Positions 7,551 to 21,348 of a stretch of 64,000 nucleotides of DNA are shown here, piece after piece. The notes under the pieces are model-generated. The model made no database searches, was not told the DNA's origin, and was given only the letters and a program-made list of their open reading frames with translations. Location of the stretch: positions 32,001-96,000 of the forward strand of contig CAVVYR010000007.1 in assembly GCA_963752475.1 (NCBI GenBank). The letters run 5' to 3'. How positions within the stretch are numbered: position 1 is the stretch's first letter; each line of letters begins with the position of its first letter. The stretch comes from an uncultured Chloroflexia bacterium. GTDB taxonomy: Bacteria > Chloroflexota > Limnocylindria > Limnocylindrales > CSP1-4. Position numbers and translations under genes: made by a program.

Positions 7551-8102
7551 GTGAGGAAGCGACTCACTACCCGGAGGATGTCGGCGTTGGTCAGCGCGCT
7601 GCTCCTGACCCTGGTCATGGCCGTGCCGGCGAGTGCGGGAGGAAACGGAGCGACCCAGATCTCAGGGGTCGGCCTGCCGGATACGTCCTACGTTTGCGAC
7701 GATTTCTCGCAGAAGGACATCTACTACGCCATCATCATGGACGAAGGCAGCCTCAACGGCTGTGTGTACGGCTTCTACGACCCTGACTTCAAGATCGGAC
7801 CGAGCGGCGTAGCCAAAGAGCGCGCTGACGAGATGTTCATCGGCTCGTACGACAACGGAACCCCAGATGAACCCGAGGACGACCTAGTAGGGACGTTCCG
7901 CATGACGGAGAACTGGCACGCGAAGTACGACCCTGCCTCGGGGATCCAGAAGTTCGGGTTCTGCAAGCACCCGATCGTCAGGGGCAGCGGCACAGGAGAC
8001 TTCGAAGGTGTCCGCGGCCGTCTCGATTTCAGGGATGATCTCACCGGTGGCCCCGGCAAGGAGCGCTTCCCCTACAAGGGTCACCTCAAGAACCTCGACT
8101 AG
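7551..8102 (+). CDS. Secreted hypothetical protein
   Basis: AAGGAGAGG RBS; signal peptide MRKRLTTRRMSALVSALLLTLVMAVPASA; C.HPIV.GSGTGDFEGV.GRLDF motif. Confidence 0.85.
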   Translation: MRKRLTTRRMSALVSALLLTLVMAVPASAGGNGATQISGVGLPDTSYVCDDFSQKDIYYAIIMDEGSLNGCVYGFYDPDFKIGPSGVAKERADEMFIGSYDNGTPDEPEDDLVGTFRMTENWHAKYDPASGIQKFGFCKHPIVRGSGTGDFEGVRGRLDFRDDLTGGPGKERFPYKGHLKNLD

Positions 8103-14158: not shown

Positions 14159-15406
14159 TCACGTATCGGACTCCTGGTGGACGACCTCTGGGCCCGCAGC
14201 GAGGCGGTCTCCACAGACGACGTAGAGTGCCCCACGACCACTGACGATCCACGCCAAGCCATCCGGACCGACGCGGAGGTCAAGGGCGCCCCGTCCGGAA
14301 TCGGGGATCTTGACACGGTAGAAGTCGGCGCCGTCGTAGACGTGCAGGCCGATGCCATAGACCGAGAACCAGACCCGGCCATCAGGGTCGACCGTGATGA
14401 TGTTCGGCGCAGTGGGATCCCAACCGGTCCAGACGTCAAGCCTCCCTTGCGGCATCCCTTGTTCCGGGCCGATGGCCGACCATGTGCCCTCGTCGTACCG
14501 CAGGAGCACGTACTCACCTGGCCGGTTGTCGTGAAGCCTGCGATCCGCGATCGCCCAGAGCGATCCATCCGGGCCGACCGAGAGTCCGAGCACCCTGGGT
14601 ACCTCGGCGGTTCCGATCTCGTCGCCACTCCAGCCTGCTTCGTCGTACGTGGCGATACCGCCGGGGCGGTATCCACGATCGATGCCCAGCCATACTCGCC
14701 CGTCGGTCGTGCGCGCGAAGTCGTAGTGACCCGCACCGCCGGCGAGGGGCTCCTCGAGACCGACCGACTCGGAGGACACCCAGGCTTCCCCCTCCAGCTT
14801 GACGATTTCACTCGTTCGATCCCGGGAACGTGTGACACGCCACACGGAACCATCGTCCAGCGTTCCTACCGAGTGCCCGGCGCTGCGCATGCCACCCGAA
14901 CGATCGACCCAACGTCCATCCTCGGCCACCACGGTCGAGCCGCCATCCTCCACGGCCCAGAGCTCGCCCCATGGCGCGAGATGGAGGAAGCGGACGAACG
15001 AACGCCAGCCGTCGGTCCTCGGCACGATCGCGCCCGGCTCGCCAAGCTCGATGACTCGACGTCCCTGCGCGACCACGATGGTCCCGTCGCTGCCGACCTC
15101 GACCTCGCGGATCCGACCACCATCGAATCGGTGGCCGGCCTGATCGGCGATCACCTGCAGGACGCCAGGCCCGACGGCCTTGGTCACCAGCCCCTCCTGC
15201 ACCTCACATATCGGTGATGGGCTAGTGGCCGATGCGCCGGGGTCGATGCCGGCGACATCGGCCGGGGCAGCCAGCAGAGCGATGACCACCAGCGCGCTGC
15301 CCGTGAGGAGAGCGCGGCGTGGTGAGGCGGCGCGCGGTAGTCGTGATGCGAGACCGTGCCCAGGCAAAGGGAGAACAACGCGCACATCCGGTCGATGCGA
15401 CGTCAT
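14159..15406 (-). CDS. Exported beta-propeller-repeat protein (two-component-regulator-propeller-like repeats)
   Basis: Hydrophobic segment LLTGSALVVIALLAAPA; repeated [VI]..DG.[VL]W blades (GPDGSLWA, DPDGRVWF, GPDGLAWI). Confidence 0.75.
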   Translation of the reverse strand: MTSHRPDVRVVLPLPGHGLASRLPRAASPRRALLTGSALVVIALLAAPADVAGIDPGASATSPSPICEVQEGLVTKAVGPGVLQVIADQAGHRFDGGRIREVEVGSDGTIVVAQGRRVIELGEPGAIVPRTDGWRSFVRFLHLAPWGELWAVEDGGSTVVAEDGRWVDRSGGMRSAGHSVGTLDDGSVWRVTRSRDRTSEIVKLEGEAWVSSESVGLEEPLAGGAGHYDFARTTDGRVWLGIDRGYRPGGIATYDEAGWSGDEIGTAEVPRVLGLSVGPDGSLWAIADRRLHDNRPGEYVLLRYDEGTWSAIGPEQGMPQGRLDVWTGWDPTAPNIITVDPDGRVWFSVYGIGLHVYDGADFYRVKIPDSGRGALDLRVGPDGLAWIVSGRGALYVVCGDRLAAGPEVVHQESDT

Positions 15407-15433
15407 CGGCGTGAGACCTCGAGGCCAGGGCCG

Positions 15434-15487
15434 CGCTCAAGGCCCCACTGGTCGGAATGCGCACCGCTGGATCCAGAGGTAAATGTA
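15434..15487 (-). promoter_or_regulatory. Conserved promoter/leader motif copy A
   Basis: Minus strand TACATT-N16-GGTGCGCATTCCGACCAGTGGGGCCTTGAGCG, then GAGGT SD and ATG 15406. Confidence 0.8.
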
Positions 15488-15565
15488 GTCCCTGGTATCC
15501 GCGCATGCGGTCAACGAACCGTGGATGGCCGGTGTCGTTTCCGATATCTCCAGCGCCGCAGCGCG

Positions 15566-15754
15566 TCAGAAGCCCGGCGGTGACTCGATCACGAGCCACG
15601 CGAGCAAGGCCACGACGGCCGCCATCGCGATGGCCGCGATGAGCGCCGCGCGTCCGTTGCTGCCGGAATCATCATCGTGGTCGGGCTCGGGTTGGACTTC
15701 CCAGCGTGGGTCGTCCTCGAACTGGTCTAGCCGATGGTCAGTGCGCATGGTCAT
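15566..15754 (-). CDS. Small single-TM membrane protein, last gene of the PASTA operon
   Basis: Acidic N-terminus, TM AALIAAIAMAAVVALLAWLVI; ATGA overlap with upstream stop. Confidence 0.7.
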   Translation of the reverse strand: MTMRTDHRLDQFEDDPRWEVQPEPDHDDDSGSNGRAALIAAIAMAAVVALLAWLVIESPPGF

Positions 15755-16179
15755 CTGCCTCGCTTCTTCAAGATGCTCCTCGCTGGTGCGCCGAGCGGTC
15801 GCAGTCGGACGACGTGTGGCGAGAGCGCGCGTCTGCGAGCACCTCCTGATCGCTCATCCGCGTCATCCCTGGCGAGACGCACGGCTTGAGCGTCGGGGGC
15901 CTCCGTCGGCGCCGACGAGCGAGATGGTGCTTCCGCCACGAGAACGTGGATCCGCCAGAGCTGCTTCAGGTGTGTCCCGGGGGAAGGCGATTGCGCGACG
16001 ATGACGCCCCAGGGTTCACGAGTGCGGACGACGCGCGTCGCGTTGACGCTGGTGCCGGCCCATGCCGCCGCCGCGAGCGCGTCGGCGAGGCCAAGCCCGA
16101 TCAGGTCAGGGACGACCGTCGTCGTGGCCGGCGCCGGTGCGGCTGGAGCCCTGCTCGTGTCGTGCGCGAGCTCAGTCAC
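15751..16179 (-). CDS. PASTA-domain protein (one domain, no signal peptide or TM)
   Basis: VVPDLIGLGLADA...GVIVAQSPSPGT.L.....IHVLV; GTG start overlaps upstream TGA. Confidence 0.75.
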   Translation of the reverse strand: MTELAHDTSRAPAAPAPATTTVVPDLIGLGLADALAAAAWAGTSVNATRVVRTREPWGVIVAQSPSPGTHLKQLWRIHVLVAEAPSRSSAPTEAPDAQAVRLARDDADERSGGARRRALSPHVVRLRPLGAPARSILKKRGR

Positions 16180-16730
16180 TTGCCGATCGATCTGACGCGG
16201 TCGATCGACGACGGGTTCTTCTCTGCGAGTCGCGCCAGGGTCAGCGCCACGACCGACCCGTCCGTGAGCAGCGTGCCTGCAGACGGGTGAGTCGACACGA
16301 TGTGGCCAGCCGGCACGCTCCTCGACGCACGCCGCCCCTTGACCAGCGGCACGAAGCCCAGCCAACACAGCAGCTCGAGCGCGGCTTCGAGCGGCAGCCC
16401 CCGGACGTCCGGGACCGGTGCGAGCGGCCGACCGGAGACGATGACGCGGATCCTCCCGCCTCGCCGTACACGCGTGCCGGCTTCAGGTCGCTGGTCGACC
16501 ACCAAGCCCCATGGCCCGATCGTGGTCTCCCACACCGAGACGGACAGCCGAACGCCAGCCATCCTGGCCGCGGCGTGTGCTTCGAGTGCTGGAAGGCCAA
16601 CGAGATCCGGAGCGAGGCACGGCACACGTCCCGGCGAGTCGGTCTGACGGGCGGGGAGCTCCAGCGCGGGACCGGGGGAGAGTCCCTCGTCCGCCGGGCC
16701 CGGGATGAAGATGCGGTCGCCGGTGATCAC
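16176..16730 (-). CDS. PASTA-domain protein (two domains, no signal peptide or TM)
   Basis: APDLVGL...VVDQRPEAGTRV..GGRIRVIVS and VPDVRGLPLEAA...SVPAGHIVSTHPSAGT.L..GS.VALT. Confidence 0.85.
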   Translation of the reverse strand: MITGDRIFIPGPADEGLSPGPALELPARQTDSPGRVPCLAPDLVGLPALEAHAAARMAGVRLSVSVWETTIGPWGLVVDQRPEAGTRVRRGGRIRVIVSGRPLAPVPDVRGLPLEAALELLCWLGFVPLVKGRRASRSVPAGHIVSTHPSAGTLLTDGSVVALTLARLAEKNPSSIDRVRSIGK

Positions 16731-17008
16731 GGGTGCCGTGGGCGACCGGATCGCCGCAAGGCCGCATCGAGTGCTCTTCGCATCCGTGTTCGATCCGATG
16801 GGGATCGCCCGTAGACGGCGGGGACGTCGACAGGCGATGTGGTCGCCGCGCTGGTGAGACCCGGGACGGGGACCTCTCCAGCCCGGCGTCGCTCAGCCGC
16901 CGCCCTCGCCTCCAGGCGTCGCACGGCACGAGATCGCGTCGCAGACGCATCGCGACCTCCCTCGACCGGTGCCTGCGGGCTGCTGGGTGGAAGTTGGCCG
17001 CCGCTCAC
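16727..17008 (-). CDS. Hypothetical Arg/Ala/Pro-rich protein within the PASTA operon
   Basis: Exactly fills the gap with 4-bp GTGA overlaps at both ends; no recognisable domain. Confidence 0.5.
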   Translation of the reverse strand: MSGGQLPPSSPQAPVEGGRDASATRSRAVRRLEARAAAERRRAGEVPVPGLTSAATTSPVDVPAVYGRSPSDRTRMRRALDAALRRSGRPRHP

Positions 17009-17445
17009 GCCAGTGTCTCCATGGGTCGGCCAGAGCGGAAGAGCGTATCGACGACATCGTGGTCGACATAGGCACCGGGCTTCGTGCGCTTGCGTGGCTC
17101 GCCCGGAAGCACCTCATAGTCGATGCGAGATCCGGCCGAGACCAACGACCCGACTCGAGGGTTCGTCCGGATGACGACCTCGGAGCGACCAGACACCGGT
17201 CGCGGTGCCGGGTCGCGGCGACCTGGCACGAGTCCCGCAGCAACGAAGTCCGCACGGGCCTCACTCTCGGTGCTCAGCACCACGTCGGGGACGCGGACGT
17301 GCGAGCGGGCGGCGACGCCGCGCGTGACCGTGTCGTCGTCGGCGTTCACTCCACCAGCTGAACCGAGGCTCGCATCGCCTGTCATGGGGATGGGTTCGGC
17401 GGGTGCGCCGAACAAGACAGACACATCAACCCGATGCGTCGCCAT
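17005..17445 (-). CDS. PASTA-domain protein (one domain)
   Basis: VRVPDVV..TESEARA...AGL...VVIRTNPRVGSLVSAGSRIDYEV. Confidence 0.75.
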   Translation of the reverse strand: MATHRVDVSVLFGAPAEPIPMTGDASLGSAGGVNADDDTVTRGVAARSHVRVPDVVLSTESEARADFVAAGLVPGRRDPAPRPVSGRSEVVIRTNPRVGSLVSAGSRIDYEVLPGEPRKRTKPGAYVDHDVVDTLFRSGRPMETLA

Positions 17446-17472
17446 CAGCCGGAACCTCGAACATCGTGGTGT

Positions 17473-17526
17473 CGCTCAAGGCCCCAGGTGGTCGGAGTGC
17501 GCACCGCGTCTTCGCGCCGGAATGTA
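17473..17526 (-). promoter_or_regulatory. Conserved promoter/leader motif copy B
   Basis: Minus strand TACATT-N15-GGTGCGCACTCCGACCACCTGGGGCCTTGAGCG, then GAGGT SD and ATG 17445. Confidence 0.8.
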
Positions 17527-17646
17527 CACCCGGCGGTGGCCCGCGGATGCGTAACGATGCGTGTCGACTCGATTGCGGAACCTTAACCAACCGAGGACCC
17601 GCCGGCTCGTCGTCTCCTGAGGTCCCCGTGGGTTCCGATTTGGGTA

Positions 17647-17722
17647 TTGCGTTCCTCTGTCGAAGGTCGTACATTCCCGCGCACGATCGTGGTGCGCAGT
17701 CCGACCGCAGTGGCCTTGAGCG
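17647..17722 (+). promoter_or_regulatory. Sigma70-like promoter plus conserved leader motif copy C
   Basis: TTGCGT-N17-TACATT-N15-GGTGCGCAGTCCGACCGCAGTGGCCTTGAGCG, then GAGGT SD and ATG 17749. Confidence 0.8.
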
Positions 17723-17748
17723 CCACCACGACGATGAGGTCACGGCCG

Positions 17749-18369
17749 ATGTGGCGCACCTTCTCCACCGCACATGGTGGCTGTTTCCCCCTGCACGGAG
17801 ACCCTGGACCTGCGTTCCCCGCCACTCATCATCACGGGACGCGCGAGGAGTCGTTGAGCACACGGCCCACCCTCGGGTCGGTGACGGTTCCGGACCTCGT
17901 CGGCATGTCATCGCAGGATGCTCGACGCACGGCGCGATTGAGTGAGCTCGGTCTGTTCCTCGAGGAGAAGCCTGCCGACTCCGGCCTTCGCGGTCGTGTG
18001 ATCCGGCAGGACCCCGAACCGGGTACCCTCGCGCGACCCGGAGACGTCATCGACGCCCAGGTCGGAGGGAGGCCGGGAGTGGCCGTTCCCGATGTGCGCG
18101 GAGCTGACGAGCAGGACGCGCTGGTGTCGCTGCGCACGGCCGGTCTGACCCCGACTCGGCGTGTCGTACGACGGTCCAGCTCCGTCGCGCCAGGCCTCGT
18201 GATCCGTACTCGCCCCCGCGCCGGCACCGAGGTCCCGGTCGGGACCCGTGTCAGCTACGTGATCGCATCCGCGGCGCGCGAACGGGCATCCGCGAAGCGA
18301 GCGGCCAGGCGGTCACGGGTGCGATGGATCCCCGATGGGGCCTTCCTCTCCATGCCGGACCGGGAGTGA
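17749..18369 (+). CDS. PASTA-domain protein (two domains; alternative TTG start at 17854)
   Basis: VTVPDLVGMSSQDARR...GRVIRQDPEPGT and VAVPDVRG...SSVAPGLVIRTRPRAGTEVPVGTRVSYVI. Confidence 0.88.
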   Translation: MWRTFSTAHGGCFPLHGDPGPAFPATHHHGTREESLSTRPTLGSVTVPDLVGMSSQDARRTARLSELGLFLEEKPADSGLRGRVIRQDPEPGTLARPGDVIDAQVGGRPGVAVPDVRGADEQDALVSLRTAGLTPTRRVVRRSSSVAPGLVIRTRPRAGTEVPVGTRVSYVIASAARERASAKRAARRSRVRWIPDGAFLSMPDRE

Positions 18370-19188
18370 ACGCGCTGGCCGAGGCGGGTAGCGGCCGTCG
18401 GGTCGCGAGCACCTGGGACGAGGGCAGCGCGTACGAGTCGTTCATGGGGCGATGGAGCCGACTCATCGCAGCCAGCTTCGTGGAGTGGCTCGACATCGCG
18501 CCCGGTGGGATCTGGCTCGACGTGGGTTGTGGGACTGGAGCCCTCACCTCGGCGATCTGTGACATGGCCGACCCCGTCGCGGTCACCGGGATGGATGCAT
18601 CACCCGAGTTCGTCTCGCACGCGGCCGATCTCTCGTGCACCGACACGGCTAGCTACGTCGTGGGAGAGGCGTCGTCGATACCGTTCGTCGACGGCATCTT
18701 CGATGTCGCCGTGTCAGGACTCGTCCTCAACTTCCTGCCGGACCCGGTCGCGGCGCTCAACGAGCAATCGCGCGTCGTCGCCCCGTCCGGAACGATCGCC
18801 GCCTACGTCTGGGACTACGCCGAGGGGATGCGGCTGCTCCGCCACTTCTGGGATGTGGCGAGGCGGGTCGTCCCGTCGGCCGTCGCGCTTGATGAGGCAG
18901 TGCGCTTCACCAACTGCGACTCCCAGAGGTCTCGAGCGCATGTTCGAGGCTGCCGGGTTGGGCCCGGTGGCCACGACGACGCTGGAGACCGAGAGCACCT
19001 TCCGCGACTTCGACGAGCTCTGGGCCTCGTTCCTGTCTGGACAGGGGCCTGCGCCAGGGTTCGTCGCCACCCTTGACGATACCGATCGGGCGTCGCTCAG
19101 GGATGGCCTCGCGACGGTCTTGCCAGTGGGTTCGGACGGTTCGATCCGTCTTGCAGCACGGGCCTGGGCCATCCGCGCCAGCGCCTGA
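18366..19188 (+). CDS. Class I SAM-dependent methyltransferase (frameshift near 18920)
   Basis: YESFMGRWSR, WLDVGCGTGAL, FDVAVSGLVLNF, AAYVWDY; C-terminus GQGPAP...ARAWAIR in a second frame; GTGA overlap with the PASTA gene. Confidence 0.88.

Positions 19189-19355: not shown

Positions 19356-21348
<1,993 letters not shown>

Follow-up and report, generated by a model that had tools for sequence, protein, structure and literature searches.

A conserved leader element with the pairing potential of a translational switch precedes PASTA and orphan genes in an uncultured genus of the Limnocylindrales

In a 64,000-nucleotide (nt) stretch of DNA from an uncultured Chloroflexia bacterium (Limnocylindrales, CSP1-4; contig CAVVYR010000007.1 of assembly GCA_963752475.1, positions 32,001 to 96,000; hereafter, the window), three genes are preceded by copies of a short leader element whose conserved core lies between a promoter-like box and the start codon. 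We judge it to be a real cis-regulatory element, previously undescribed and outside every curated RNA family. On balance, we lean toward a model in which it is a lineage-specific leader of the anti-Shine-Dalgarno/anti-anti-Shine-Dalgarno type, controlling translation by acting as RNA that gates initiation. The main mechanistic clue is a block, GGCCTTGAG, that is complementary to the Shine-Dalgarno (SD) region and that a first-pass annotation of this DNA had overlooked.

The first-pass annotation had placed three aligned non-coding segments, each followed by GAGGT and an ATG, at 15487 to 15434 on the minus strand (copy A), 17526 to 17473 on the minus strand (copy B), and 17670 to 17722 on the plus strand (copy C), and the window sequence reads exactly so, in coordinates and in letters. 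In all three, the hexamer TACATT (15482-15487, 17521-17526, and 17670-17675, respectively) is followed by 15 to 16 variable nt, GGTGCGCA-N-TCCGACC, a spacer of 4 to 5 nt, and (G/T)GGCCTTGAGCG; the core of copy A, for instance, reads GGTGCGCA-T-TCCGACC-AGTG-GGGCCTTGAGCG. The SD sequence GAGGT (15420-15416, 17458-17454, and 17736-17740) lies 13 to 14 nt 3' of GGCCTTGAGCG, and the ATG begins 8 to 9 nt further on (start codons at 15406-15404, 17445-17443, and 17749-17751). A 16-nt core pattern matches the window three times, always with 0 mismatches; when up to 2 mismatches were allowed, shuffled sequences gave a mean of 0.52 matches, and 3 of 100 shuffles reached three. The block GGCCTTGAGCG has exact matches in the window at copies A, B, and C only. 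Model R1 scores the copies at 66.4 bits (A), 83.6 bits (B), and 87.5 bits (C).

The element recurs outside the window. In the genome as a whole (G000; 4.25 Mb, 68% GC, 88.8% complete, with a contamination estimate of 5.8%), the joint pattern has four matches, versus 0 for a reversed-pattern control, and the fourth copy lies on contig C8. Each of the four stands directly 5' of a gene and in the same orientation to it, which is not the random placement of a dispersed repeat, a possibility that the first-pass annotation had raised. Identical stretches of sequence also occur on different contigs of this genome (C2/C3 and C4/C29); they fit the contamination estimate or strain heterogeneity, and copy counts should be read with that caution. 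A covariance model built from 17 copies and searched in 49 genomes of the genus found 23 places in 16 of them. Among 151 genomes sampled across the order (150 apart from G000), strong matches were seen in this genus only; weak matches (E ~1e-3) in 4 of the 145 sampled genomes of other genera resembled chance on inspection and did not appear homologous. A scan of metagenomes with a specific pattern gave 17 matches on 16 contigs, of which 14 were full-length copies and 3 were chance matches inside open reading frames (ORFs) of other organisms; a model search added 2 copies on the same contigs, for a metagenome total of 16 copies on 13 contigs. Together, the genus genomes (23) and the metagenome contigs (16) yield 39 distinct copies. 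Their sources are a single uncultured genus, within which they are limited to one subgroup, and metagenomes of sediment or salt marsh.

Every one of the 39 copies lies on the sense strand of its gene between a promoter-like box and a start codon, and GAGG and a start codon follow each. Matches to the core only proved to be leaders in 19 of 21 cases in relatives and in 14 of 17 in metagenomes, the other five being chance matches within ORFs. The spacers vary: the loop is 5 to 7 nt long, the stretch after the -10 box is 8 to 17 nt (with a 9-nt deletion in two copies), and GAGCG is separated from the SD sequence by 12 to 16 nt. A coding explanation for the core was rejected because these lengths vary by indels that are not multiples of three. 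The first-pass proposal of a shared element, asymmetric and strand-specific, that sits 3' of a -10-like box and 5' of the start codon is supported, and searches of this genome and its relatives extend it to conservation across species with variable spacers. A loose core-pattern scan of species-representative genomes returned at least 119 matches in unrelated phyla, which were judged to be chance; loci from that scan searched with model R1 (n = 80) contained short, core-length stretches only, at 17 to 24 bits, and never the whole element.

Known RNA families do not account for the copies. A covariance search of positions 14800-18400 with the Rfam 15 models at E <= 10 gave three weak matches, none over a copy, and at gathering thresholds the whole window and three related loci gave no matches. 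The families covered include ydaO-yuaA, ykkC-III, ROSE, FourU, and SAM-II-like pseudoknots, in agreement with the first-pass annotation, which had recognized no known riboswitch. In the portions of papers returned by a full-text literature search, none linked PASTA genes to a leader RNA.

Based on the conserved blocks, the leader RNA could form three helices, which we call P1, P2, and P3. P1, a hairpin that would close the element, pairs GGUGCGC, lengthened by a variable 5' flank, with GCG-N-CACC, lengthened by a variable 3' flank. In copy A, its 5' arm would occupy 15469-15459, the 5' arm and core together span 15434-15469, and the 3' arm extends to 15425 (all minus strand); in copy B, the 5' arm, core, and 3' arm would lie at 17509-17499, 17505-17473, and 17475-17464 (minus strand), and in copy C at 17687-17697, 17691-17722, and 17720-17731 (plus strand). 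Within P1, UCCGRCC can pair with GGCCUUGA to form P3 (UC-GRCC with GGCC-GA). P2 would pair GGCCUUGAG, often extended 5', with the SD region over 6 to 13 bp. P2 overlaps P3 at the GGCCUUGA block and P1 at its final G, and it would compete with both. It is more likely that P1 and P2 are mutually exclusive than that they form a pseudoknot, on geometric grounds, because the full helices would leave only 3 to 6 nt to cross an 11-bp stem.

We tested this pairing on a MAFFT alignment of 39 rows that had been fitted to no structure. Of the cells in the alignment, 81.3% are paired for P1, 88.0% for P3, and 84.2% for P2 (386 P2 cells), whereas controls in which the partners were slid by 1 to 3 columns paired in 34 to 48% of cells overall and in 39 to 44% for P2. 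A model-fitted alignment gave the same picture. By way of example, P1 pair 25-62 is GC in 32 copies, CG in 3, and GU in 2; P1 pair 19-67 is UA in 8, UG in 6, CG in 5, GC in 2, and GU in 1; and P2 pair 47-81 is GC in 16, GU in 11, and UA in 4. In P3, 4 of the 6 pairs hardly vary. P2 fits the sense RNA only, because G·U pairs make up 29% of its cells, among them pairs 49-79 (33 of 39 copies) and 53-75 (39 of 39); on the opposite strand, pairing would drop to 55%.

Two divergent copies, L192:415-496 (minus strand, 20 bits) and L054:1501-1584 (plus strand, 30 bits), have changed core letters and yet appear to keep complementarity of the P3 and P2 types, as judged for L192 from a reading by eye of the metagenome contig sequence. 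They suggest that older, more diverged relatives of the element exist, and they are the most informative sequences for the structural model.

Predicted energetics place the two folds close together. In constrained folding, the mean energies were -20.2 kcal/mol with P1 and -21.2 kcal/mol with P2, the latter being the more stable in 18 of 39 copies. The minimum free energy (MFE) folds of the window copies differ: in copy A, GGGGCCUUGAG is paired with CUCGAGGUCUC; in copy B, the SD region lies inside a 15-pair helix with the conserved block that extends 2 pairs into the P1 3' arm; and the fold of copy C forms P1. The median predicted probability that GAGG is unpaired was 0.23 in the 39 leaders and 0.42 in 400 other genes of the genome with a GAGG SD sequence (one-sided Mann-Whitney p = 1e-5, with the proviso that the 39 leaders are not independent).

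A number of observations weigh against this reading, and we gather them here. The covariation score exceeded that of all 500 shuffles, but related sequences can beat every shuffle without any structure. The number of cells changed on both sides (18 for P1 plus P3 and 23 for P1 plus P2) was reached by 0 of 500 shuffles; the number of pairs with a change on both sides, which is the measure least prone to phylogenetic artifact, was reached by 174 and 187 of 500 shuffles, respectively, and is not significant. Compensatory changes among the copies are few, and since the copies come from closely related members of one subgroup of one genus, they represent few independent events. Some proposed pairs are mostly mismatched, namely, P1 pair 22-64 (27 of 39), P2 pair 55-73 (24 of 35), and P3 pair 37-50 (A·C in 23 of 39), and P1 pair 27-60 is mismatched in 15 of 39. 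Nearly every invariant base can be explained by P1, P2, or P3, and no ligand pocket is marked out. The folding z-scores of 8 leaders, from -1.64 to +0.18, are unremarkable, and the energy of duplexes formed by the SD window with upstream sequence is not unusual for a genome of 68% GC (against 1,469 background genes, the median of the motif leaders ranks at the 37th percentile). Finally, in four RNA libraries, available as assembled contigs, pieces of genes A, B, and C (the genes behind the respective copies) and of the genes after B are covered at low depth; these contigs do not span the leaders, and with no contig ends over the leaders they map no transcription start and speak neither way.

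Where would such an RNA begin? The upstream hexamer is TACATT in 35 of 39 copies, and in the 39-row alignment its T1, A2, and T6 are invariant and its C3, A4, and T5 nearly so, a pattern probably reflecting a -10 element. In copy C, TTGCGT (17647-17652, plus strand) lies 17 bp 5' of TACATT, as the first-pass annotation had noted, and TCGAC or TTGCGT occurs as a -35-like sequence 17 to 19 bp from the -10 box in some copies. Since a sigma-70 consensus scan of 15300-17900 returned no promoter-like sites, we draw the promoter call from the pattern of conservation. Further upstream, about 50 nt 5' of TACATT in many copies, relatives carry a conserved block, TGAAGAATCC-N-TAAYC...TCGACA; alignments with relatives identify a related version before copy B at 17562-17586 (minus strand), with a counterpart at about 7920-7945 of locus L026. 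This TGAAGAATCC block may be an activator or operator site common to divergent promoters. In loci of the L026 type, a perfect TTGACA on the opposite strand serves a divergent PASTA gene.

Taken together, we posit the following mechanism. Transcription would start about 7 nt past the -10 box, and the first ~70 nt of the mRNA could adopt either of two competing folds. In the open (ON) one, P1 would be closed and UCCGRCC paired with GGCCUUGA in P3, leaving the SD sequence GAGGU free. In the closed (OFF) fold, GGCCUUGAG would pair with the SD region over the 6 to 13 bp of P2, including its two invariant G·U pairs, and so hide the SD sequence. Because both folds have similar predicted stability, any factor favoring one of them would set the rate of translation. 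We speculate that this trigger would be a protein (perhaps encoded at the locus), a small RNA, or the kinetics of co-transcriptional folding rather than a metabolite, since the helices account for nearly all of the invariant bases and nothing points to a pocket. In most copies, the module would extend into codons 3 to 9, where rare codons would form a further hairpin, and it would serve genus-restricted genes whose products are PASTA proteins with no signal peptide, a beta-propeller membrane protein, and small disordered proteins. Could promoter and leader, along with the first ~9 codons and their rare-codon hairpin, make up a portable regulatory cassette, placed before unrelated genes and acting as a true sensor (a new riboswitch or a protein-responsive switch) that couples the translation of signal-less PASTA proteins to a cell-wall-derived signal? 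We consider this bolder version unlikely.

Could the conserved core instead act as DNA? Binding just 3' of the -10 box by a transcription factor, whose gene might lie nearby or which might act together with the TGAAGAATCC block, could repress or activate transcription, with the RNA pairing being incidental. The near invariance of GGTGCGCA, TCCGRCC, and GGCCTTGAGCG, which goes beyond what base pairing needs, would be explained in this way, as would the weak thermodynamic signals for RNA structure; the core sits where repressors often sit, and the second conserved DNA block upstream would be in keeping with such a factor. An operator, however, leaves unexplained a distance to the -10 box that varies from 8 to 17 nt and internal spacers that vary by 2 to 4 nt; the core is asymmetric, and the variable flanks remain complementary (P1, 81% of cells). 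The dependence of P2 on G·U pairs, in 29% of its cells, would be meaningless in duplex DNA, and a conserved block matching the SD region is not something that an operator predicts. We therefore regard an operator as possible but doubtful. A metabolite riboswitch of a new class, in which a small molecule such as a cell-wall precursor stabilizes P1/P3 or a P1-P2 pseudoknot, seems to us improbable. The anti-SD/anti-anti-SD layout is indeed that of translational riboswitch expression platforms, the core is highly conserved, the two folds have nearly equal predicted energies, and no known family matches; yet the element is small, its invariant bases fall almost entirely in P1, P2, and P3 with no conserved junction or bulge, it is confined to 16 of 49 genomes of one genus, and the genes downstream (PASTA, orphan, and beta-propeller) are not metabolic or transport genes.

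The leader might also be structured without being a switch: a 5'-terminal hairpin could guard the mRNA from 5'-end-dependent decay, with partial masking of the SD sequence fixing translation at a low level. P1 begins only a few nt from the inferred 5' end, or at that very end in the two copies with the 9-nt deletion, and the predicted accessibility of the SD sequence is low at all temperatures. A hairpin kept for stability could do without an invariant loop, however, and would not call for one block to have two partners that exclude each other, and we put little weight on such a constitutive role. An RNA thermometer, in which P2 melts with rising temperature, strikes us as very improbable indeed. 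G·U pairs in an SD helix are a feature of some RNA thermometers, and P2 has them at pairs 49-79 and 53-75, but the predicted probability that GAGG is unpaired is 0.19 at 20 °C and still only 0.24 at 45 °C, the predicted melting is flat from 10 to 55 °C, and no Rfam family, thermometers included, matches the copies at E <= 10. A leader with two competing helices, one of which takes up the SD region, remains the reading that we favor.

Which genes does the leader serve? Gene A (14159-15406, minus strand; 415 amino acids [aa]) has the N terminus MTSHRPDVRV and a hydrophobic stretch; its Pfam matches are all sub-threshold (Reg_prop, 19.3 bits against a cut-off of 20.4), and "beta-propeller" is the label given by the first-pass annotation. 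Gene B (17005-17445, minus strand; 146 aa) encodes one PASTA domain between the N terminus MATHRVDVSV and the C terminus YVDHDVVDTLF. Gene C (17749-18369, plus strand; 206 aa) encodes two PASTA domains, begins MWRTF, and has no visible signal peptide. Translations of genes B and C and of their relatives show no signal peptide or kinase domain. Gene B is followed by ORFs at 15566-17008 (minus strand) that we infer to form an operon with it: one of 93 aa, one of 184 aa with two PASTA domains, an overlapping PASTA ORF of 205 aa, and one of 62 aa with a hydrophobic C-terminal end. The ORFs at 15751-16368 and 16176-16730 (both minus strand) overlap in different frames and both match PASTA, an overlap that points to a frameshift, to an assembly error, or to a downstream ORF that truly starts later. 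Among the matches listed, close relatives of gene C (E <= 4e-31) occur in 13 of the 49 genus genomes, including G000, and all 13 carry the leader motif. Many loci have a gene of the gene C type that points away from the leader-bearing gene and carries its own, different leader.

Elsewhere, the leader precedes genes for proteins of 72 to 116 aa with a TEWxADLS motif and a C-terminal YVDxDxxD, the latter common to gene B. This family comprises 26 proteins among 5.8 billion, none with a Pfam domain, and none was found in 200 other genomes of the taxonomic family that were searched (191 of them from other genera). An AlphaFold2 model of one member (predicted local distance difference test, 56.7; predicted template modeling score, 0.16) predicts an essentially disordered protein. 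Type VII secretion, an idea raised by the YVDxD with which the small proteins and PASTA proteins end, was rejected because neither EccB (PF05108) nor WXG100 (PF06013) was found in the 88.8%-complete genome.

The conserved unit continues into the coding region. The products of genes A and B both begin with the motif M-[TA]-[ST]-H-R-x-D-V, and in 27 of 39 copies the reading frame opens with M-x-[TS]-[HD]-[RH]-x-D-V-x-V. Within it, His4 is CAT in 25 of 25 cases and Asp7 is GAT in 23 of 24, although genome-wide CAT makes up 21% of His codons and GAT 23% of Asp codons. These early codons can form a hairpin of 6 to 7 bp (CGCAUC/GAUGUG), and the third positions of its loop codons vary. In copy B, the hairpin falls in codons 2 to 9 (GACGCAUCG/UGAUGUGUC; 17420-17440, minus strand), contains the rare CAT and GAT codons, and is followed by a T-rich stretch; it is the one terminator-like site in a scan of 15300-17900 and lies within gene B rather than in the leader. 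The counterpart region in copy A is at 15383-15401 (minus strand), and the same place is occupied in 27 of 39 copies (codons 3 to 9). The hairpin may belong to the regulatory RNA, serve to bind a protein, or act as an attenuator. An intrinsic-terminator attenuator in the leader itself was rejected, since the same scan found no terminator-like site for the leaders of A or C.

These features bear on the origin of the copies. The first-pass annotation had held that the downstream genes differ and that the motif is a shared regulatory element, not a gene duplication. The shared element stands, but the genes are not wholly unrelated: A and B have the N-terminal motif in common, and gene B, gene C, and the genes after B are PASTA paralogs. 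Because in most copies the conserved unit runs on into the first 8 to 15 codons and the PASTA genes are paralogous, the copies are probably paralogous 5' modules, duplicated within a lineage-specific gene cluster and maintained by selection.

The locus of the fourth copy (L026, G000:C8:80332-96332) is syntenic across species (L027 and L029-L032). There, a 542-aa gene (starting MQLAEALL) is followed by a two-PASTA gene in divergent orientation, the leader with a small orphan protein, further ORFs (which include a PASTA protein in some loci), and a 453-aa gene (starting MT[IV]ETDR). Judging by their N termini, the flanking genes may encode a thiamine-pyrophosphate enzyme and an MgtE-like transporter. 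Elsewhere in the genus, there are very long frames of tandem PASTA-like units, up to 3,812 aa (G001:C6:338523-344138, G007:C61:126402-128618, and others), in which the units are far more numerous than in the usual PknB- or PBP-type proteins. In the window, about 1 kb beyond gene C, ORFs of 102 and 539 aa (19356-21348, plus strand) resemble GroES and GroEL; no leader copy precedes them.

If confirmed, the leader would add to the cis-regulatory RNAs a compact new one in which ~70 nt hold each of the three parts that a translational switch needs, a layout that lends itself readily to tests by compensatory mutation. The leader also picks out a set of genes, evidently co-regulated, that had not been described before in this uncultured lineage from sediment: genes for PASTA proteins without kinase, transmembrane, or signal sequences and for orphan disordered proteins. 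Its narrow distribution limits its wider importance.

How does the leader compare with known systems? The ydaO/yuaA riboswitch, which responds to cyclic di-AMP, precedes cell-wall genes in Actinobacteria, and our element likewise stands before cell-wall-related genes in high-GC genomes of the Gram-positive type; it differs in being much smaller, in having another architecture, and in giving no Rfam match at E <= 10. In the ROSE and fourU RNA thermometers, G·U or non-Watson-Crick pairs weaken the helix that contains the SD sequence. P2 would also place the SD sequence in a helix weakened by G·U pairs, but the competing P1/P3 fold, the flat predicted melting, and the lack of an Rfam match set the leader apart. 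In autoregulatory protein-binding leaders, such as those of ribosomal-protein genes, a short structured leader conserved in sequence overlaps the translation start, as it does here; by comparison, no RNA-binding protein emerged here as a candidate, and the small protein encoded downstream of several copies is predicted to be disordered. Finally, the thiM thiamine pyrophosphate riboswitch of Escherichia coli has a translational expression platform of the anti-SD/anti-anti-SD type. Unlike riboswitches with such platforms, our element is ~70 nt long, shows no separate aptamer domain or conserved unpaired pocket, and is found in part of one genus; with them it shares a place in the 5' leader, a segment complementary to the SD sequence, a second segment that would compete for it, and two folds of similar predicted stability.

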